Origin: Octopus vulgaris
Lineage: Eukaryota
Length of the DNA stretch: 64,000 nucleotides
Direction: 5' to 3'
Assembly: GCA_951406725.2 (NCBI GenBank)
Contig: OX597825.1
Span: 60,078,001-60,142,000, forward strand
Below the pieces are notes generated by a model. It was not told the DNA's origin and did no database searches. It saw nothing but the letters and a program-made list of their open reading frames with translations. Position numbers and translations under genes: made by a program. This document shows, piece by piece, positions 5,627 through 63,687 of this stretch. Each line of letters opens with the position of its first letter. The first letter of the stretch is position 1.

Positions 5627-7586
5627 AATGGGAAATCTCCAGGTATGGATGGCATATATGCGGAGTTGTTACAACATGATGGTGAGAAACAGTTGTAGCA
5701 ACTTCACTCTTTGTTTGGTAAGATATGGGCTAGTGAATCTGTACTGGAGAGATACAGTAATCGTGGTCTTGTATAAGGGAAAGGGCAATAGGAATGATTG
5801 TGGTAACTATAGGGGAATATCATAGCTTTCTGTCGTAGGAAATGTTTTATGCTGGGTACTTCTGGATCGTCTTCTGAAACACGTTGCACATTGTGTTCTT
5901 CCAGAAAGTCAATCTGGCTTTCGTGTGGGCCGTGGCACTGCTGATATGATCTTCTCAGCTAGAGAGCTTCAGGAGAAGTGTGTGGAACAGGGTGTGGATT
6001 TGTATCTGTTTTTTTGTCGATCTGACAAAAGCCTTTGATACCGTTAATAGAAAAGCATTGTTGAAAGTCCTCTAGAAACTTGGGTGTCCTGAAAAGTTCC
6101 TTACTTTGGTTAGGTCTTTCCATGAATACATGAAGAGTAGGGTTACTGTTAGAGGGAAAATGTCGGAGCCCATTTCAATACAAATTGGAGTGAAACGGGG
6201 ATATTCTGGCACCGACCCTATTTGCCATATATTTTGTGATGGTTTTATGTATTGCATTCAAAAACTGCAGATATGGTGTCTAATTCCATTATCGAACCTC
6301 AATATCAGGCGCTTTGCTGCAAAAAGAAAGGTATTTACCTCTATCATAAGAGATCTTTTGTATGCAGATGATTGTGATCTAGTAGCGCACACAGAGATTG
6401 ATATGCAACACATTTTGAATGCATTCTCTGATGCTTGCACTGCCTTACGATTGACAGTCAGTCCCAAGAAAAATGTTGTCATGCACCTACCTGCCCCTGG
6501 TAAGAAGTATAGTGTACCAAATATCTATGTGTATGGTAAACGACTTGACGTAGTTGATCAGTTTGTCTACCTGGGAAGCACTATTAATAGATATAGCAAT
6601 TAGGATGATGAAGTTCGATACAGAATTAGGAAAGCAAGTGATGCTTTCGGAAGGTTAGAAAGGCGACTGTGGAGTCGGCGAGACATATGCAGAAAGACAA
6701 AGATAAAGGTGTACAAGGCATGTGTGCTCCATTCTTTTCGCTATGCCTGCGACCCGTGGGTCACATATTGATACCACCTTAAACAGCTGGAACGTTTCCA
6801 TCAGATGTGTCTCAGACGGATCTACGGCATTAACTGGGAGGACCGCATCAGTGATCTTGAAATATTGGAAGGCTCTCGGTGCGAAAGTATAGAAGGCTCA
6901 GATGGAGTGGTCATCTGGTCAGGAGGAAGGATTCAAGGATGCCAAAACAACTCTTCTATGGAGAGTTAGCTAAAGGAGAACTACCTCCACATAAACCAAA
7001 AAAGAGGTATAGGGACTTTCTGAAGGCTTCCTTAAGAGATGCTTGCATCTCTCCTGACACATGCAAGGGCATAGCTATTGATCGTAGCAGGCGGAGAAGG
7101 ATTATGCACGAGGGGACAGGTACATTTGAGAAATCTTGAGTTGCGCATGAGAATTAAGTGGTGATGTCAGGAAGGGCATCGCTGTTACACTTTCGGATGG
7201 GAAGGGTCTTTCTATTATGCTGACATGCAGTGTCTGTGCAAGACCCTGCCTCAGTAAAGCTGAACTCAAGAGTCGTCTTCGTAGTCATAAAGCGAGACAG
7301 ATGAGTGACAACCTGGCCACTGGTGGTGGTGTTAAATACCATACTAATCATATCTGTCAGGCATGTAGAAGAGAGTGTAATTCGGCAGGAGAACTTAAAT
7401 GACATACAAAGGTACATGAAGCCCAGTTACAACTACAGCCGGCTACTGCCGGTAAAGGTTTTAGCTGCCAATTCTGTACAAGGCATTGTAGATCTTTAGC
7501 TGGGCTAAAATGTCACATTCGATCACAGCACCAATAACAGTTAAGCTTCGTGCAATGGCAATACTCGATAACGTGGGGCAGCCATC
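5627..7586 (+). mobile_element. 5'-truncated, decayed RTE-clade non-LTR retrotransposon (reverse transcriptase plus C-terminal C2H2-like zinc fingers)
   Basis: Frameshifted fragments read GKSPGMDGIYAELL, VVLYKGKGNRNDCGNYRGIS, PESQSGFRVGRGTADMIF, VDLTKAFDTV, LLYADDCDL, VVDQFVYLGSTI and RLRWSGHLVR..SRMPKQLFYGEL. Three CxxC-x12-HxxxH-like motifs lie at 7217-7530. The element ends in an (ATCT)n tail. Confidence 0.93.
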
Positions 7587-8920: not shown

Positions 8921-8923
<3 letters not shown>

Positions 8924-9198
8924 GGAGTAAACACATAAATGTGAAACAAGGTGGAAAAAAGAGTACTCAAATACCAGTGGTAGAGTAATATGCTTTATTT
9001 TAAGCAGCAGAAAATTCAACAAAATCTGTTACTCTGAGTTTCTCGTTGCCGTTCATCAGACAGTTTTTGCTAGAATGGAACCGATATATCAATTCAAATT
9101 GATATATCTGTTCCATTCTAGCAAAAACTGTCTGATGAACGGCAACGAGAAACTCAGAGTAACAGATTTTGTTGAATTTTCTGCTGCTTAAAATAAAG
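8921..9198. mobile_element. HHR element family F4 forming a fold-back palindrome (arms 8993-9094 and 9097-9198) inside (TA)n
   Basis: The 102-bp arms have one mismatch and a 2-nt spacer. (TA)n lies on both sides. A second copy is at 45399-45573. Confidence 0.85.
9128..9165 (+). ncRNA. Type I hammerhead ribozyme (mirror copy at 9026-9063 on the minus strand)
   Basis: CUGU-CUGAUGA-aCG(gcaa)CGa-GAAAC(ucaga)GUA/ACAG. The core is fully canonical and stem I can extend through GCAAAA/UUUUGU. Confidence 0.85.
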
Positions 9199-9222
9199 TA
9201 TATATATATATATATATATATA

Positions 9223-9960
9223 TTATACATGCTTGTGTAGGGATATATATATATGTATGTATGTATGTATGTATATATATATACGCTTGTGTAGGAATAT
9301 AATATATACCTACATCTATACAAACATGCATACCTACATACATAAGGACACATCCACACACTTATTGAGTGCCAGCACTTACAGGGTGACAGTGTGAACA
9401 CACAGACAAAACTCCTGTATATACCTATATGTATGTGTCTAAGTAGTGCTTAAATACATTGGGCTATGTATATGAATACATAATAAATGGAAGTGTTGTT
9501 TCACATCACATGTATGCATATGCACTTCTATGCATATACATGAACATGTGTTTGCACATACATATCTTTATGAGGAGCAATCATCTTGCCCCAAAATCTA
9601 TACCTGTATTGTGGTGTGCTCATTTAACAGGGGAGAAAATCGACGTGGTTCCTATCACTCGTATCTCTTTCAATTAGTGAATCTGTAAAATATTGGAAGC
9701 ATAAAAATCTTCATAAATTACAACAGATTAGGAGATCGAAAATCCACCTGACGAATGTCATTGAAGACATGAAACGATTGTAGTGGCGGTTTATTTCTTT
9801 ATATTAAAATTTTTTATGTATTGATTAAGTCTTTCCTTGTTTGTTTTGCAAAATAGTGGTTTTGTCTCGAATTATATTACATAATATTTTACTATAAAAT
9901 TGGATTTAATCCTAAATCTGATTTTTCCCTGTAAATTTAGATTTATTCCCTAATATTTAT

Positions 9961-10000
<40 letters not shown>

Positions 10001-10011
10001 CATGCTTGTGT

Positions 10012-10053
<42 letters not shown>

Positions 10054-10469
10054 ATATATATACGCTTGTGTAGGAATATAATATATACCTACATCTATAC
10101 AAAAATGAATACCTACATACATAAAGACACATCCACACACTTATTGAGTGCCATCACTTACAGGGTGACAGTGTGAACACACAGGCAAAACTCCTGTATA
10201 TACCTATATGTATGTGTCTAAGTAGTGCTTAAATACATTGGGCTATGTATATGAATACATAATAAATGGAAGTGTTGTTTCACATCACATGTATGCATAT
10301 ACATGAACATGTGTTTGCACATACATATCTTTATGAGGAGCAATCATCTTGCCCCAAAATCTATACCTGTATTGTGGTGTGCTCATTTAACGGGGGAGAA
10401 AATCGACGCGGTTCCTATCACTCGTATCTCTTTCAATTAGTGAATCTGTAAAATATTGGAAGCATAAAA
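9223..10469 (+). repeat. About 480-bp direct duplication (9223-9706 and 9996-10469) flanking an HHR-containing insert
   Basis: The copies are near-identical, with a few SNPs and one indel of about 16 bp. They are separated by 9707-9964 plus (TA)n. Confidence 0.93.
9744..9786 (+). ncRNA. Canonical type I hammerhead ribozyme (family F5)
   Basis: CCAC-CUGACGA-AUGUC(auugaa)GACAU-GAAAC(gauu)GUA/GUGG. Stem I extends through an AAAAU bulge to GAUCG/CGGUU. Confidence 0.9.
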
Positions 10470-13806: not shown

Positions 13807-15027
13807 TGAGGGGTGTTCATTAAAAATTTCCCCAGACCACTTCTGGTTATTGCAGTAAACAGAACTTATAAAGGTATAATCATGCGTGTTTCTACATGCC
13901 ACATATATTGCAGCTTTCCACTAGTATTCTTCTGTCTTTTACGGCTGCTGAAGTGGACTAAGGTGTTATGATGGAGGCAGTTGAATGCAAATCAGTGATC
14001 AGGTTCGTATTCTTGAAAGGGTGTACACCGAAAGAGACTTTCGATGAGACGAAAGAAGTTTATGGTGACAATGCACCATCATATGACGTAGTCTAGCACT
14101 GTCATCACCAGTTCAAATGTGGTCGGTCATCAGTGGAATCAGCTCATATTCCTGGACGACTGCATTCTGCCGTTGATGACGATACCATCGATAAAGTGGA
14201 AGCCGCCATTTCAGGGGATCGCCGAATAGCTATTCGGCACTAGTCGAAGAAGTGAAGATAAATGTAGGGTCCGTGGAAAAAAATCATTCAAACATTTCTA
14301 CATGCGAAAGTTGTCAGCACGATGGATTTCCCGGATGCTCACACCTTTTTAGTAGCAGAAACGAGTCAATTTCTCACAGGACCTTATGGCAATATGCTAA
14401 GAAAACAAGGAGGACTTTTTCGGCAGACTTATCACACAAGATGAAACATGGGTCCATCACTAAGATCTTGAGACTAAAGTCCAGTCGAAGCAATGGAGGC
14501 ATGACAACTCACCACCTCCAAAGAAAGCTCGTGTCTAAACCTCAGCAGGTAAGGTTATACAGTCTTTTGGGTCCTGTGCGGAGTAGTGATGATGGATTTT
14601 CTGGAAAAGGCCACCACAATTAACGGGGCATGTTTTGCTTTGCTGCTGCAGAAATTACGGGATGTCATCAAAGCAGAGAGGCGTTACATTCTGACCAAAG
14701 ACGTCCGTCTCCTCCAAGAAAACATCCCAGATCACAATGCGCATGTTGTCCAGATGAAATCCTTCCTGATTACCCTTAATCTCCCGTCCTCGCACCATCT
14801 CACTTCCATCTCTTTCCAACTAACTATGAAGTCTTTTTTGAAGGGGAAGCACTTTTTGGATCATGACGCAACCTACCGACTTCTACAGACGATGTCTTCA
14901 TAGCTGCATAAAGAGATGGCAGAAGTGTGTGGCGGCTATGTAGAGAAGGACTAAAAATTATGTCAAGTTTCGTTTATCCCATTCCTTGGGAAGTTGGTCA
15001 AAGGAAATATTTAATGAACACTCCTCG
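13807..15027 (+). mobile_element. Decayed mariner-type DNA transposon
   Basis: Imperfect TIRs of about 35 bp ((C)GAGG(G/A)GTGTTCATTAAA.ATTTCC), with a TA at the right end. Broken transposase fragments read LSARWISRMLT, RLITQDETWVHH, RLLQENIPDH and P*SPVLAPSHFHLF (a decayed YSPDLAPSD). Confidence 0.92.
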
Positions 15028-17904: not shown

Positions 17905-22990
<5,086 letters not shown>

Positions 22991-29933: not shown

Positions 29934-32416
29934 TTCAACAATTGAGGGTAAAATTAATTAATTATTAATCAATTTCACCAAGTATTCGGTATGTAAAGGG
30001 ACCATTTTAGGCGAATTCAAAATATTACATTATGTATAAGGGCTTAGTAAAATAAATTACTTTGCCACATACTGAACTCATTAGAAATAGCAGCTAAAGA
30101 AATTTCTTCAGCTATTTCTAATACTTAAAGAAGATCTCTCTCAGATAGTGTTTGCCTAAACCAACTCACAAAGGTATGGGGGAAAAAACATTAAAAAATC
30201 AAGTGCAAAGGTTATTTGAGAACGTACGTTTCTAGATTAGTCAATTCGACATTTCTTTCGTCAGCTCAGAATTCCTTGAATCGGATTTGGGAACACTGAA
30301 AGTTGGGAGCATACCCTTTCGGCTTCTTATCACTTCTAGAATTCTGCTCGAACTAAAAGTGCTACCAAATTCGAATATGCAAGCGAAGAATTTCTGCTCT
30401 CCCCTTTCCACCAGCGTGGGTTAAAATTGACAAACACCATGTATTAACGGTGAAAACCTCAGCATTTAACAGAGAAAGATGAATTATAATTTCAACAATT
30501 GAGGGTAAAATTAATTAATTATTAATCAATTTCACCAAGCATTCAGTATGTAAAGGGACCATTTTAGGCGAATTCAAAATATTACATTATGTATAAGGGC
30601 TTAGTAAAATAAATTACTTTGCCACATACTGAACTCATTAGAAATAGCAGCTAAAGAAATTTCTTCAGCTATTTCTAATACTTAAAGAAGATCTCTCTCA
30701 GATATGTTTGCCTAAACCAACTCACAAAGGTATGGGGGGAAAAACATTAAAAAATCAAGTGCAAAGGTTATTTGAGAACATACGTTTCTAGATTAGTCAA
30801 TTCGACATTTCTTTCGTCAGCTCAGAATTCCTTGAATCGGATTTGGGAACACTGAAAGTTGGGAGCATACCCTTTCGGCTTCTTATCACTTCTAGAATTC
30901 TGCTCGAACTAAAAGTGCTACCAAATTCGAATATGCAAGCGAAGAATTTCTGCTCTCCCCTTTCCACCAGCGTGGGTTAAAATTGACAAACACCATGTAT
31001 TAACGGTGAAAACCGAAAGGGTATGCTCCCAACTTTCAGTGTTCCCAAATCCGATTCAAGGAATTCTGAGCTGACGAAAGAAATGTCGAATTGACTAATC
31101 TAGAAACGTACGTTCTCAAATAACATTTGCACTTGATTTTTGAATGTTTTTTCCCCCATACCTTTGTGAGTTGGTTTAGGCAAACACTATCTGAGAGAGA
31201 TCTTCTTTAAGTATTAGAAATAGCTGAAGAAATTTCTTTAGCTGCTATTTCTAATGAGTTCAGTATGTGGCAAAGTAATTTATTTTACTAAGCCCTTATA
31301 CATAATGTAATATTTTGAATTCGCCTAAAATGGTCCCTTTACATACTGAATACTTGGTGAAATTGATTAATAATTAATTAATTTACCCTCAATTGTTGAA
31401 ATTATAATTCATCTTTCTCTGTTAAATGCTGAGGTTTTCACCGTTAATACATGGTGTTTGTCAATTTTAACCCACGCTGGTGGAAAGGGGAGAGCAGAAA
31501 TTCTTCGCTTGCATATTCGAATTTGGTAGCACTTTTAGTTCGAGCAGAATTCTAGAAGTGATAAGAAGCCGAAAGGGTATGCTCCCAACTTTCAGTGTTC
31601 CCAAATCCGATTCAAGGAATTCTGAGCTGACGAAAGAAATGTCGAATTGACTAATCTAGAAACGTACGTTCTCAAATAACCTTTGCACTTGATTTATTAA
31701 TGTTTTTTCCCCATACCTTTGTGAGTTGGTTTAGGCAAACACTATCTGAGAGAGATCTTCTTTAAGTATTAGAAATAGCTGAAGAAATTTCTTTAGCTGC
31801 TATTTCTAATGAGTTCAGTATGTGGCAAAGTAATTTATTTTACTAAGCCCTTATACATAATGTAATATTTTGAATTCGCCTAAAATGGTCCCTTTACATA
31901 CTGAATACTTGGTGAAATTGATTAATAATTAATTAATTTTACCCTCAATTGTTGAAATTATAATTCATCTTTCTCTGTTAAATGCTGCGGTTTTCACCGT
32001 TAATACATGGTGTTTGACAATTTTAACCCACGCTGGTGGAAAGGGGAGAGCAGAAATTCTTCGCTTGCATATTCGAATTTGGTAGCACTTTTAGTTCGAG
32101 CAGAATTCTAGAAGTGATAAGAAGCCGAAAGGGTATGCTCCCAACTTTCAGTGTTCCCAAATCCGATTCAAGGAATTCTGAGCTGACGAAAGAAATGTCG
32201 AATTGACTAATCTAGAAACGTACGTTCTCAAATAACCTTTGCACTTGATTTTTGAATGTTTTTTCCCCATACCTTTGTGAGTTGGTTTAGGCAAACACTA
32301 TCTCAGAGAGATCTTCTTTAAGTATTAGAAATAGCTGAAGAAATTTCTTTAGCTGCTATTTAATGAGTTCAGTATGTGGCAAAGTAATTTATTTTACTAA
32401 GCCCTTATACATAATG

Positions 32417-32417
<1 letters not shown>
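29934..32417. mobile_element. Head-to-head array of a 556-557-bp non-coding HHR monomer (retrozyme or Penelope pLTR-like; family F10)
   Basis: About 1.9 copies run in one orientation (29934-31014) and about 2.5 in the other (31013-32417). The copies are near-identical, have no ORF of 60 aa or more, and both ends abut (TA)n. Confidence 0.9.
31067..31118 (+). ncRNA. Type I hammerhead ribozyme, one per monomer (also 31623-31674 +, 32179-32230 +, 30217-30268 -, 30773-30824 -)
   Basis: UGAG-CUGACGA-aAGA.aau.GUC(gaauu)GAC.uaa.UCUa-GAAAC(guac)GUU/CUCA. Stem III is the palindrome AACGUACGUU and stem I extends through an internal loop to AAGG/CCUU. Confidence 0.85.
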
Positions 32418-32505: not shown

Positions 32506-33785
32506 GGGTGGGGAAGCAAAATTTACAATATTTTGAGGCAGGGATTGAAAGACAGTGTATGACTAATTAGTTTACTGAAAGTCATGAGAATTTATTTGCC
32601 GCAAGAAAATTTACATAATAGAAAATATTTTTATTCTATGTGTCCCCCTTCATTCTCAATAACTGCCTTCATATGCTTCCTGAAACTTGCACAGGCGTTC
32701 CTGAAATATTCGGGAGACAACTTATCCCATTCTTCTTTATTAGCATCTTTAAGAGAGTCGACATTGCTGTGTGATGTTCTATTGGTAGCATATTCTAAAA
32801 CGCCCCAAATAGCATCATCCAGAGGGTTTAGATCTGGGCTAGAAGCCGGCCATAAACATAAAATTGCTAAAGTTGGATTTGCAGAAATCTTTTATTTTTC
32901 TAGCTGTGTGGGCTGGAGCACCATCCCGTGTCCATACATAATTACCATCTGAGTAGTTTGCTTTAAGCCATGGCAATATCTGGTATCTCAGATTCTTGTA
33001 GTAAGTATAAACATTGATCTTTTCATCAGCTTTGTAGAATTTTATAGGCGTCTTCTTTCCGTTGGAAGCCACAACACCAAACGCCATAACTTAAGCAGGA
33101 TGTTTTGTTTTGAATGTCCCCTTAACCTCAGCTGTTGATTTTGTTATAAATCTGTCATTTCTGTGGTTCAGAACAGCATCGACAGTGAAGATCTTTTCAT
33201 CTGAAAAGATCGTTACAATGGAGGACTTTTCTTGAACCATGTAATAATTTTCTTGCACCTTTCCAATCTCTTTTCCTTCATAGCTGTTGTCAACAAGTAT
33301 TTTGGTGTTCTTCTGTAAGATTGTAACCTCAAATCATATTTTACTGCATTTCTAATGGTCTTCTTGTCTACCTCAAGTTCAATTGCTATTTTTCTCATGG
33401 ATTTGGTTGGATCCTTTAGGATTTTGGATTTGAGAGCTTTAATAAAAGCTTTGGTACGTTTTTTGTTGATTCCTCTACTTCCAGACATCCTCGTAATTGT
33501 TTTGCTAATAGTCATTCTATTCTTTAAATTATAAACAGTCTTTATAGACACTCCAACTAGTCTTGAAATCTCCTTTGGTGTGACTAGTGCATTCAGCAAA
33601 TCACACACTCTTTGACATTTGCTTTCCTGATTACTCATATGGGCTAAAAGTTTCTGCAAAGGTAAGGTTAACAGTTTTAGGTATGATTATGACATCAATA
33701 TATGCTAGGTTTCAAAACAATTGACTTAGTGCCCTCTGAGAAAAAGCAACTTAACTTTCATTGTAAATTTTGCTTCCCCACCCAA
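32504..33785 (-). mobile_element. Decayed Tc1/mariner element, maT (DD37D)-like
   Basis: TIRs read GGGTGGGGAAGCAAAATTTACAAT and sit in TA runs. Transposase pieces are the HTH ORF 33213-33659, IFSDEKIFTV, YVWTRDGAPAHTA and, after a frameshift, LWPASSPDLNPLD. Restoring an 8-nt deletion gives D37D spacing. Confidence 0.9.
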
Positions 33786-45367: not shown

Positions 45368-45398
<31 letters not shown>

Positions 45399-45401
<3 letters not shown>

Positions 45402-45573
45402 GCAGTAAACACATAAATGTGAAACAAGGTGGAAAAAAGAGTACTCAAATACCAGTGGTAGAGTAATATGCTTTATTTAAAGCAGCAGAAAATTCTACAA
45501 AACCTGTTACTCTGAGTTTCGCGAAACTCAGAGTAACAGGTTTTGTAGAATTTTCTGCTTGCTTTAAATAAAG
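45399..45573. mobile_element. HHR element family F4, spacerless fold-back palindrome (45471-45573) inside (TA)n
   Basis: Same family as 8921-9198. The arms are about 51 bp and centre on TTTCG/CGAAA. Only the 3' half of the HHR is retained. Confidence 0.88.
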
Positions 45574-46050
45574 TATATATATATATATATATATATATAT
45601 AACTTCTGAACCTCTATTTCATTGGTGTTTTGCAAGCAAGACTTGGAAGGCCGTCACTTAATGTTCGTGAAAGATACATTTCCAAAATGGGAGTAACTAG
45701 TTGACAAAGAGTTTCTCCGTACCTAACGAAGAATCCACTCCATAGAAAGATGGAAATAATGTCGACAAGCATCTTCGACTACCTCTGCGACTATCTCAAT
45801 AATTAGCATCCTTGGACTGACTCTTCTGCCCTAACATGGTGCTAGCTACACTTGTTGGGATTTGAATTCAAATCTTAAATAGCTGGATCAAATGCTGAAT
45901 GCAGTGTATTTTACACCACGCAAGAACGAATCTTTCCGTCTATCAATTCAACCATCTTGTATTTAATAATTTGGCAAATAGACTAAACTATATTGAATGT
46001 ACCTTTCGTTTGGAATAAATTATACTATAGTTAACAGTATAATTAACTGT

Positions 46051-58281: not shown

Positions 58282-59799
58282 TTACAAACATATATATAAA
58301 CCTCTTCTAATTAATGATTAGTATTAATTGGAAGAGAGTACGATATGGAAAATGGACGAATGTATGTATTATGTTATGCTCCTTTACAATGTTGAAGTTT
58401 GACATGTGTCTGTCATGACGTCTTCCTTATATTTGTGTTATAAAAATGAAACGTATCCGACTTATGTATTTAATTATAATAACACCTTCGAAAGTTGTGC
58501 TATCATAGCACTTTGAATAGGGGACAGATATTTATTTGAACAATTGCAAGAACATAGCAAGAGCAGAACATTAAAATTCATTCGCCAAAAAAAAAGTGGG
58601 AATGTAGTGGGTATGAATTTCAGCGGGAAAAATTTCACTCGTTAAACCAATGTCGGAATGAATAAAGAATATGCGAGGAGCGACACAAGAATAAGCTTGC
58701 TTGAAACTGAGAGAATTCTGCAGTAAACTCGTCAACATTCCAAATACCATCGTTAAGTTCGCTTATTGATAGCTTCTTATTGTTTTTCGGGGAGTACTTA
58801 AATCAATGCATTGTACACTCTTTGAATTAAGGGTTGTATTTCTGCTGTGATATTTACGTCAGACCTGTTTAAATTGGATACCAGAGATAATCTCATAAAC
58901 ACTTCAACAACATCTTTCAGAGATATTTTGGCCTTTCACTAAACCTTGCAAACGAAGGAGAAAAGAAAAAAAAACGAGACCATTCATTCATCCGTTTGCA
59001 AGAGCTAGTACCAAAGCAGGTGTATTGAAGTAACTTGTACTCGAGGATATAAATAATCCAGCAGTGTTACCTTCTGAACATTTTACCTATTAACATTTTG
59101 TTCAGAATATACACTGTGCTTATAATAAATTCTTTGGTTAAGGTAATGAAACTAATTTCTTGAAATAATATATTGTGCCATGGAAACTGGAACTAGCGAT
59201 GAAGAAAAAAATATGTAACTAAGAGTCATATATATTTCATAATTTTATGTCAAATAAATTATTACTTTTGATTTCCATAAACCATTACTTTCCGTCGTTA
59301 TAGTCTAAATTACAATATTTCTTCAGATTTACGGTTGTAAATACATTTCATTTCGTAATAAAAGTGGTATCCAATAAATATGTTCTTATACGTTTCTTAT
59401 GAATATTGGAGAAAGTTATATATTATTTGACGCAATATTTCTAATAATTTAAACCCGTTTAATTTTCGTTTTGATTACGGATATAAATATTATTTCTTTC
59501 AAGATTAACACGAGTTTAGTAGCTGAATGATGTACAACATTTTGCAGTTTAATAAGAATATAATAAAATAGACATAACGGTCTATAGACCCATATATACA
59601 TATATATATTTGTATGTGTCTATATATATATCACTATATACATATTTCCTACATGCATAAATCATACAAACATATACACACACACAAACACACACCTACA
59701 TATATTTATATACGAAATAGAAGCAGTGGTTGTAAAATTGAGTGTAATAAATATTATCGACCACACATACACAACGCGTATACGTTAAGAATGTACGTT

Positions 59800-60095: not shown

Positions 60096-60274
60096 TTTTT
60101 TTTTCCTCCGTCTTCCCTTCTCTGGATCATTCCTTTTCTTATGTTTCTGACGAAGAGCTCCGCTCGAAAAGTTAAACCATACTTCTTTCCTTCTTTACTG
60201 AGTGTCCAATAATACTATACTTGTTCCACGTCCTCGCGTTGTTGTGTTTTCTCTTTGTGTTTTTAGGTTTGGAT

Positions 60275-60316
<42 letters not shown>

Positions 60317-60336
60317 ATCCAAACATGAAAACACAA

Positions 60337-60339
<3 letters not shown>
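60096..60339. mobile_element. HHR element family F2 (plus strand, 60096-60279) tail-to-tail with a 28-bp opposite-strand 3' fragment (60311-60338) across one (TA)n
   Basis: The sequence reads ...GTTTGGATTAAC(TA)nGTTAATCCAAACATGAAAACACAAAG and is homologous to 2229-2430. Confidence 0.8.
60143..60177 (+). ncRNA. Minimal type I hammerhead motif
   Basis: GUUU-CUGACGA-A-GAGC(ucc)GCUC-GAAAa-GUU/AAAC. There is one stem III substitution relative to the GAAAC of the 2.3-kb copy. Confidence 0.75.
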
Positions 60340-61382: not shown

Positions 61383-61560
61383 CGAGAAAAAATAGCTAGT
61401 TACAAAATCTCATGAGATATAGTAGTAACGTACACTACACAGTAAAGCGTGTAGCCACATCGAAGTGGCCAATGAATGTTACTACTAGTTTAACCCTAGG
61501 CGGATTCTTCGCCAGCTGGCTTTTGGTGCAATATCTGCACCCTTTTATATATATACACAC

Positions 61561-61637: not shown

Positions 61638-62196
61638 TAAATTGATCAAAATAAAAACATAATGCGAAGGATTCAGCGGTACATATGTTTCGGGCCTTTA
61701 TTAGACAGATTTATAACAATGCATAATGTATGTGTGTGGCCTTCTTCAGCCGCTCACAACAGCTTCCACAAGGACATGTGTTACATCAAAAATTCTTGGT
61801 TGATGCAAATCCTCTCATTCGCGTACGACATAATGCGGCAGCAGCATAGAATTGAAGCGTCCATCTCTTTCTTCTCTCATTCTACATTGAGAGAAGAAAG
61901 AGATGGACGCTGCAATTCTATGCTGCTGCCGCATTATGTCGTACGCGAATGAGAGGATTTGCATCCCCAACCAAGAATTTTTGATGTAACACATGTCCTT
62001 GTGGAAGCTGTTGTGCGCGGCTGAAGAAGGCCACACACATACATTATGCCTTGTTATAAATCTGTCTAATAAAGGCCCGAAACATATGTACCGCTGAATC
62101 CTTCGCATCATGTTTTTATTTTGATCAATTTACTCCACCACCTACACCACCAAACGGTATACACAGGTGCTTATAATTATCAAGTACTCACCCCGA

Positions 62197-62201
<5 letters not shown>
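61638..62201. mobile_element. HHR element family F11 forming a palindrome of about 490 bp (61638-62132) inside (TA)n
   Basis: The arms are about 245 bp with a few differences and centre near 61884. The right arm continues about 70 bp to (TA)n. Confidence 0.88.
62017..62094 (+). ncRNA. Type I hammerhead ribozyme with a loop 2 of about 40 nt (mirror copy at 61675-61754, minus strand)
   Basis: GCGG-CUGAAGA-aGGCC(about 41 nt)GGCCc-GAAAC(auau)GUA/CCGC, with a canonical core. Confidence 0.82.
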
Positions 62202-62666: not shown

Positions 62667-63687
62667 ACGTTAAGCGAGTAACCACATTGAAGTGGCCGAT
62701 GAATGTTACTTCTAGTTTAACCACAGGTAGATTCTTCGCCAGCTGGTTTTCGTTGCAAGCTCTGCATTCATTATGTACAATAGATCGCTAGCAGCTGACA
62801 AGATTACGGGACCGGCCGGGCTTCATCGATTTGGCCCATGTCGAAACCGGCCGGTACCGCGATCTTACAAACTAAGAAAAATAAAACCTAAAACCTAAAA
62901 ATTATTGACTTAAAATAGTTAGCTTCTAAGATATTTATGTTGATTGAGATGTTGAGGAAAACTAAGAAAGCGTGTACACACACACACACTGACACACAGA
63001 CACACACATATAAACAGTGTATAGCCACCTCAAAGTATCAGACTAATGTTACTACCAGTTTAACCCCAGGCGGATTCTCCGCCAGCTGCTTTTCGGTGCA
63101 AGCTCTGCACCCTTTATATAAAATGAATCGCTAGCTGGGGAGCAAAACCCTACTATCCCGCAGCAGCTGACAGGATCGCGGGACCGGCCGGTTGCGAGCT
63201 ATTTGACTCACGTAAGCCGGGCGCACCTGCGCAGTGGAGTGATAGCCAAGATCCGCTTCCGCCAGCGATATATTGTAATGAAAGTAATCAGCCACTGATC
63301 TGGAATAAGTAAAATAGCCAGTTACAAAATCTCAACGAGAGATAGATAAGTAACGTATACTAAATAGTAAAGCGAGTAGCCACATCGAAGTGGCCGATGA
63401 ATGTTACTACTAGTTTAACCCCAGGCGGATTCTCCACCAGCTGGCTTTCGGGGCAAATTCTTCACCCATTATACACAATACATCGTTAGCATCTGACAAG
63501 ATCACGGGACAGGCCGGTTTCGATCTATTTAGCTCACGCCGAAACCGGCCGGTCCCGCGATCCTGTCAGCTGCTGGGGATTAGTAGGTGTTCGTTCTCCT
63601 TGCTAGCGATGTATTTTATATAAAGGGTAAAGAGCTTGCACCGAAAACCAGCTGGCGGAGTATCCACCTGGGGTTAAACGAGTAGTG

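Follow-up and report, generated by a model that had tools for sequence, protein, structure and literature searches.

The closest described counterparts of the insertion studied here are the EN+ Penelope-like elements (PLEs), which include Penelope/Poseidon, Neptune, Nematis, and Hydra (PMC3846280 and PMC8557442). In PMC8557442, inverted 5′-truncated copies are described together with a 30–40 bp one-sided tail, which was ascribed to endonuclease resolution. According to the same source, (TA)n is targeted by Naiad and Hydra, Neptune has a microsatellite bias, hammerheads are present in Hydra and not in Naiad, and the origin of the tandem and inverted structures and of the microsatellite bias is named as unsolved. 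An inverted pLTR with a 31-bp tail and palindromes at the junction was described in PMC3846280, in which self-priming was proposed. A biochemical study of a purified anole PLE (PMC11167929) revealed that the protein cuts and extends both strands, that uncut RNA is the template, and that the tail in vitro is the gap between two internal reverse-transcription start sites. A dimer was predicted in that study, initiation occurred without homology to the target, the tail length of 30–40 bp was also quoted, and the steps after priming were left unvalidated. Minimal and variant hammerheads exist in pLTRs, with opposite-strand pairs 100–700 bp apart (PMC4209133), tandem retrozymes have been linked to PLEs (bioRxiv 10.64898/2026.07.22.740005), and 31 recently active Penelope-like families have been reported in Octopus vulgaris (PMC13282606).

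We analyzed an insertion of the family designated F4 at 45 kb in a 64-kb stretch of DNA (the window), which is AT-rich, microsatellite-dense eukaryotic DNA. The F4 architecture is already published for PLEs, that is to say, F4 is of a known kind. Minor novelties are tails about twice the usual length, an inner junction composed of a mismatch plus ATAT, and two apexes located at helix II of a hammerhead-like motif. Among open-access papers and preprints, neither a description of the F4 family nor a table of such junctions was found. An earlier note on this DNA rediscovered the inverted pLTR and the tail of PLEs, and its interpretation as a whole is partly supported; the hammerhead-like motif and the Penelope-like architecture were missed in it.

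Ends, tail, and arms of the F4 insertions

The features of the F4 insertion at 45 kb, of its sister copy at 9 kb, and of the other tailed palindromes are listed in Table 1.

Table 1. Positions in the window of the F4 insertions, their hammerhead-like motifs, and the other tailed palindromes.
Feature	Positions	Strand	Remarks
F4 insertion, 45-kb locus	45400–45573		flanked on both sides by (TA)n
Left half of (TA)n target	45371–45399		45399 is the final A of the repeat
One-sided tail, 45-kb F4	45400–45470	−	71 nt; 70/71 identical with 8922–8992
Long arm, 45-kb F4	45471–45521	−	5′-truncated copy, continuous with the tail
Apex, 45-kb F4	45521/45522		loopless palindrome center
Short arm, 45-kb F4	45522–45573	+	inverted, tail-less; ends at the fixed inner site
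Right half of (TA)n target	45574–45601		
Sister F4 insertion, 9-kb locus	8922–9198		tail 8922–8992; long arm to 9095; short arm 9096–9198
Complete type I hammerhead-like motif, F4 short arm	9128–9165	+	motif scan; helix II atypical, 2 bp
Mirror copy of the F4 hammerhead-like motif	9026–9063	−	motif scan
Other family, 61.6 kb	61640–62201		short arm from 61640; apex ~61883; tail 62131–62201 (71 nt); one hammerhead motif per arm
Other family, 30 kb	29934–32417		557-nt tandem units; 93-nt tail on one side; five hammerhead motifs; in (TA)n
Tailed arm, 30 kb	29934–31013		1080 nt; 1.9 units; tail 93 nt
Tail-less arm, 30 kb	31012–32417		1406 nt; 2.5 units
Older tailed palindrome, 18 kb	18122–18301		11-nt loop (18177–18187) at the hammerhead helix II position; tail ~62 nt; 3′ half of the core only

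The RNA sense of the 45-kb F4 is the minus strand, and the outer end of the tail is the RNA 3′ end, which, by analogy with the anole PLE (PMC11167929), would be the outer reverse-transcription start. Comparison between the 2 insertions revealed that (i) the outer ends (45400 and 8922) and the short-arm ends (45573 and 9198) correspond base for base, both short arms ending in AAATAAAG followed by TATA; (ii) the tail is on one side only in both copies, with a length of 71 nt and 1 difference between the loci; (iii) the arms, read in the RNA sense, are 172 nt at 9 kb and 122 nt at 45 kb and have their outer end in common (2/2 loci); and (iv) the 9-kb apex (9095/9096) contains one unpaired C/A pair and sits 54 nt further in than the 45-kb apex, which is a perfect palindrome without a loop and departs from the 9-kb copy at its two central bases. 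A single deletion in the 9-kb sequence was considered as the source of the 45-kb apex and rejected, since by inspection it misses by two bases.

The second F4 palindrome described in the earlier note, with the same outer end and the same short-arm stop and a different apex, is confirmed by this comparison, the ends at 9 kb being exact at 8922 and 9198. The claim of the note that locus-specific variants are shared by both arms of a locus also held. Over the 50 nt present in all four F4 arms, the two arms of a locus are identical at 9 kb (0 differences) and are set apart by 1 inserted base at 45 kb, whereas the two loci differ by 3 substitutions, each of which is found on both arms of its locus; 2 of these variants had been named in the note and the third was added here. 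The three variants are linked and count as one haplotype rather than as three tests. The whole 9-kb arm pair differs by 1 substitution in ~101 nt, and the F4 arm-to-arm BLAST E value is 9e-47.

Collection of the F4 copies yielded these two loci, at which the short-arm ends coincide and the apexes differ; blastn and nhmmer found no third locus in the 64-kb window, and the fixity of the ends stands at 2/2 with n = 2. The two short-arm ends would coincide by chance with a probability of ~1/107 when every position is eligible and of 1/9 when the choice is restricted to TA-like sites. One scan of prokaryotic genome contigs gave 0 F4 matches.

Hammerhead-like motif and relationship to Penelope-like elements

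The F4 hammerhead-like motif includes the core boxes, a 4-bp helix I that can be extended by ~11 bp, and a near-palindromic helix III with its loop; both halves of the core are present, 12 nt apart, and a cleavage site is predicted from the sequence. Helix II has 2 bp only and does not have the usual G10.1–C11.1 pair, and the motif has no Rfam hammerhead match; the motifs at 61.6, 30, and 9.7 kb have helices II longer than that of F4. The 45-kb copy retains only the 3′ half of the core (45523–45539, positioned by alignment to the 9-kb copy) because its apex falls inside the motif, at the 3′ edge of helix II and ~13 nt upstream of the predicted cleavage site. In F4 and in three other families, the motif lies on the strand that reads toward the TA junction.

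The motif scan, the thresholds of which were set after the F4 motif had been seen, gave 11 matches in the window; four repeat families account for 10 of these. The mean in 20 Markov-simulated control windows was 0.2. A lone match at 59260 (−), outside any recognized repeat, is probably due to chance. Opposite-strand pairs in the window are 131, 337, and 410 bp apart. No hammerhead was found among the 102 Rfam matches at 9000–9200 (102/102) or among the best 150 of the 272 Rfam matches listed for the whole window. Rfam matches to microRNA-type hairpins, all below threshold, were dismissed as effects of the palindrome and the microsatellites. The predicted folds of five hammerhead regions were no more stable than those of shuffled sequences (z from −1.0 to +0.5).

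We consider a PLE-type origin of F4 highly probable. As no RT or GIY-YIG ORF is linked to F4, its membership is judged by non-coding features and no clade is assigned. Both copies are shorter than 300 nt, with no longer copy detected in the window by blastn or nhmmer. No PLE-like protein is apparent among the window ORFs of at least 100 aa, 5 of the 68 listed having been scanned against Pfam and most of the others being microsatellite read-through. The non-coding PLE traits found at F4 are (i) a variable 5′ truncation combined with a fixed outer 3′ end (2/2 loci); (ii) a head-to-head inverted 5′-truncated copy, present at both F4 loci and in three other families, with the polarity given by the hammerhead motif; (iii) a one-sided tail in both F4 copies, for which we took the published range of 30–40 bp as descriptive rather than defining; and (iv) an AT-rich or microsatellite target, found at all 5 tailed palindromes of the window. 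In these four traits F4 behaves like a PLE insertion, and, judged from its sequence, we file it as putatively PLE-mobilized. It is probably an RNA 3′ end mobilized by PLE machinery, that is, either a heavily 5′-truncated PLE or a PLE-dependent non-autonomous element. Besides F4, the window contains a decayed LINE-type RT fragment (6076–6600, +), a Tc1-like transposase fragment (33216–33686, −), and a mariner-like DDE fragment (14553–14900, +), each with a Pfam match below the curated cut-off.

F4 resembles the EN+ PLEs (PMC3846280 and PMC8557442) in its head-to-head inverted truncated copy, its one-sided tail, the palindrome at the inverted junction, a type I hammerhead-like motif near the 3′ end, and the AT-rich or (TA)n target; the descriptions of Hydra and Neptune best fit its (TA)n bias and hammerhead-like motif. 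By contrast, F4 is only 175–277 nt long, has no ORF, and has a tail of 71 nt (62–93 nt in the window families) rather than 30–40 bp. PAc, the Anolis Poseidon element of PMC11167929, shares with F4 two fixed ends parted by the tail, an AT-rich target, a hammerhead (in F4, a hammerhead-like motif) kept uncut in the copied sequence, and an ATG that overlaps the core where helix II begins. The PAc ORF starts at that ATG, whereas the F4 frame closes after 18 codons; in addition, the F4 tail is longer, and the inner ends in the window families are often located at a TA-like 5-mer, whereas PAc starts without homology. The non-LTR retrozymes (bioRxiv 10.64898/2026.07.22.740005 and PMC8969392) are non-coding, as F4 is, depend on PLEs, as F4 probably does, and carry a type I hammerhead, to which the F4 motif is similar. 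At least 2 consecutive tandem units with a type I hammerhead, by which these retrozymes are defined, exist at the 30-kb locus (557-nt units, with a hammerhead in each full unit) and do not exist in F4; F4 may have arisen by truncation of either a retrozyme or an autonomous PLE. The Naiad/Chlamys PLEs share the (TA)n target, the inverted copy, and the tail with F4, whereas Naiads are described in PMC8557442 as having no canonical hammerhead, a point on which F4 departs from them by its core motif, atypical though it is. A text search of the PMC8557442 supplement gave no match to four short motifs of the window.

Tailed palindromes elsewhere in the window

A census of inverted repeats revealed the order of TA flank, tail-less arm, apex, arm plus tail, and TA flank at 5 loci of 4 families in the 64 kb. 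All 5 tailed palindromes are flanked by (TA)n on both sides; such runs make up 4.5% of the window. The apex centers are nearly symmetric at four of the five loci (0, 2, ~8, and 11 nt), and two of the five apexes are located at or in hammerhead helix II.

The arms of the 61.6-kb element differ by 4 substitutions and one 3-nt indel in ~240 nt, and helix II of this family has a long loop. The distance from the predicted cleavage site to the inner end is 37 nt in F4 versus 40 nt at 61.6 kb, and that to the outer end is 108 versus 111 nt. The similarity between the 3′ 110 nt of F4 and of the 61.6-kb family is not significant (101 of 500 shuffles score as well), and a motif seemingly common to the 2 tails was dropped as not significant. 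None of the 6 family pairs showed significant similarity (65–500 of 500 shuffles as good). The arms of the 18-kb element differ by several indels, and its likeness to F4 is confined to the surroundings of the hammerhead 3′ half, including the helix III sequence; homology between the two is not claimed (10/1000 shuffles for the left arm and 102/1000 for the right arm plus tail).

At the 30-kb locus, the tandem units reveal the template beyond each junction, which makes this locus informative. The 2 arms meet via a 2-nt microhomology, 138 nt out of register. A fold-back of the tailed arm would give at most ~990 nt, and the tail-less arm is longer than this (Table 1), which argues against a simple fold-back there; a fold-back of the tail-less arm could not supply the terminal tail. 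Among the units, 15 columns are variable, of which 2 are common to more than one unit; both group right-arm units, and one of them is the length of a G run. The remaining pattern consists mostly of variants private to one unit and carries no lineage signal. No informative column pairs a left unit with its fold-back (mirror) partner, 0/4 variants private to unit L2 recur in the mirror unit, and the tail-less arm carries its own variant. The arm lengths and both informative columns (2/2) speak against the copying of one arm from the other, an argument that comes from another family than F4 and from a pattern that could be mimicked by later unit gain, conversion among direct repeats, or mis-assembly.

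Several other repeats lie near these elements. A single-arm hammerhead-bearing element (9707–9963, motif near 9740–9787), the 3′ end of which joins (TA)n, is located between 2 copies of ~510 nt of host DNA (9199–9706 and 9972–10469) with 7 substitutions in 421 columns compared; the duplicated flanks look like a very long target duplication or a captured flank. The 9-kb F4 copy abuts the TA run of the left ~510-nt copy. At 60252–60339, inverted arms of ~26 nt face a central (TA)n, an arrangement opposite to that of F4. The segments 61389–61551, 62669–62864, 63016–63196, and 63311–63686 are diverged copies of one repeat in both orientations, and an old palindrome-like unit (63406–63686) lies within this cluster.

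Inner junction and formation of the arms

The F4 short arm ends in AAAG, after which the template continues with CATAT and the flank reads TATAT. Neither copy has any contiguous microhomology at this junction (0 nt); a single mismatch precedes four matching bases, and the C of CATAT is missing in 2/2 copies. A fold-back strand joined at CATAT should retain this C; therefore, resolution at a CATAT microhomology, as put forward in the earlier note, is probably wrong in detail. The junction fits priming by a target 3′ end better than joining of a fold-back strand at CATAT, although the missing C is not decisive, since a folded-back DNA strand could also serve as the template for priming by the target end. 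A mismatch plus ATAT is also found at the inner junction of the 30-kb family, whereas the 61.6-kb family has a 2-nt microhomology only; the inner end of the decayed 18-kb copy lies in a TA-like tract. If a target end terminating in TATA is the primer, a mismatch followed by ATAT is expected, as seen in the two F4 copies and the 30-kb family. TA-like 5-mers occupy 12/167 positions in F4, 27/552 at 30 kb, 24/311 at 61.6 kb, and 24/110 at 18 kb, and one is located at the inner end in 3/4 families of the window; by our own arithmetic, the chance of two inner-end TA-like matches in three independent families is roughly 0.03. We regard the TA-like tract as a weak yet real signal, which is not a classical joined microhomology.

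Two-ended priming by PLE machinery is, in our assessment, the best explanation of F4 (probability roughly 0.55), and, once a PLE-type origin is granted, we lean toward it rather than toward a fold-back. By analogy with the in vitro system, the fixed inner end is most likely a second priming site and not a fold-back stop. A GIY-YIG endonuclease would cut both strands of the (TA)n tract, as it does in vitro for the anole PLE. Each target 3′ end would then prime reverse transcription inward, one at the outer start and the other at an inner start 71 nt upstream on the RNA, and two such start sites would leave the tail on one side only and fix both ends. A single source locus would have supplied both templates, either as separate RNA copies or as two units within one multimeric RNA, and the arms would therefore share the variants of that source. 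Both cDNAs would stop early and be joined head to head at self-complementary or short-microhomology spots, so that the apex would differ per insertion; a variable apex is observed. At both junctions, the target 3′ end is at the start of the cDNA-sense strand. L1 twin priming is comparable in that both target strands prime cDNA and an inversion results, the inverted part there being a different stretch of one RNA. The F4 arms, unlike those of L1, copy the same stretch, so two templates or a fold-back are needed.

F4 alone does not separate a fold-back from two-ended priming, since its shared variants are equally expected from one molecule, from two RNAs, or from two units of a multimeric RNA. 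The derivation of both arms from one template molecule, claimed in the earlier note, is accordingly not established by these variants, and it is doubtful for the 30-kb family. The fold-back model of that note, put in PLE terms, needs a single priming event: a cDNA begun at the outer site would turn back at the apex and serve as its own template, and it would then be cut, or joined to the target, at a fixed site that lies 71 nt before the start of the cDNA is reached. This model is close to the self-priming idea in PMC3846280, and we judge it possible but doubtful. It agrees with the locus variants common to both arms at 2/2 F4 loci and with the suggestion in PMC8557442 that endonuclease-mediated resolution makes the tail. 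The near-symmetric apexes (4/5) are also most simply explained by it, and the 11-nt loop at 18 kb is located where a hairpin would naturally form from helix II. For two-ended priming, it has to be assumed in addition that the two cDNAs annealed at self-complementary sites, the only ones at which identical cDNAs can do so; the product would then be the same. Also against two-ended priming are the tails of 62–93 nt in the window versus the published 30–40 bp, and the TA-like inner ends versus the homology-free initiation in PMC11167929. A fold-back, however, cannot make the 30-kb locus without later unit gain, does not keep with the loss of the C of CATAT, and would have to turn at the loopless 45-kb apex, the central 12 nt of which do not fold as DNA; moreover, the inner tail boundary in vitro is itself a reverse-transcription start (PMC11167929).

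The remaining explanations place the origin of the palindrome elsewhere. Perfect palindromes in (TA)n are unstable, and the arms might be independent or old, their likeness within a locus having arisen from later arm-to-arm gene conversion or cruciform processing that also trimmed the apex to symmetry. Such instability would explain the loopless apex, but private arm differences persist at 61.6 kb, at 18 kb, and in unit L2 of the 30-kb locus, and the fixed ends are left unexplained, which makes this course improbable. Even less probable is a MITE or fold-back DNA transposon with a TA target duplication and a center deleted to different extents: F4 is palindromic, non-coding, and TA-flanked and there are Tc1/mariner remnants in the window, but its termini are not mirror images, since in each copy 71 nt extend beyond the repeat at a single end, and the hammerhead-like motif and the 30-kb tandem units are retroelement traits. 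Palindromes beside microsatellites are hard to assemble, and a sequencing or assembly fold-back chimera at difficult (TA)n tracts might be suspected. The earlier note argued against random chimeras and for a structure made per insertion, with fixed ends, by a reproducible mechanism, and the same layout in four families of the window agrees with it on both counts. The motif polarity is the same in these families as well, two loci separated by 36 kb agree exactly in both of their ends, and the arms of the older copies have diverged by real substitutions; because of the shared ends and this divergence, a chimera appears very unlikely from the sequence, the least probable of the explanations weighed here.

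Under two-ended priming, the tailed palindromes may be read, tentatively and at less than even odds, as direct traces left in the genome by a PLE dimer that carries out target-primed reverse transcription from both ends. Of its subunits, one would act at the outer site and the other at the inner site, aided there by 4-nt ATAT pairing with a mismatched primer end; the templates would be separate RNA copies of one source locus, and the cDNAs would be joined at self-complementary spots, sometimes at helix II. If true, this reading would connect the two start sites seen in vitro with the inverted pLTR, take the place of the published ideas of self-priming and endonuclease resolution, and explain why (TA)n is targeted. 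Neither this model nor a tabulation of apex and inner-end positions was found among open-access papers and preprints; subscription papers and supplements may differ. The structure itself is expected for PLEs and will not surprise a specialist, and its value is as test material for arm formation. Since four families contribute five tailed palindromes to these 64 kb, fold-back and two-ended priming could be told apart without bench work by a survey of the ends, apexes, and arm-specific variants in this genome, the 30-kb locus being the best single locus for testing fold-back. For annotation, such loci should be treated as PLE-derived and not as MITEs, microRNA hairpins, or assembly errors.

In the RNA sense of F4 (8981–9005 and 45459–45483, minus strand), the inner end falls within the 3′ strand of a small stem-loop predicted there and immediately precedes another. 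The third F4 locus variant adds one pair to the first predicted stem near this end in the 45-kb copy.
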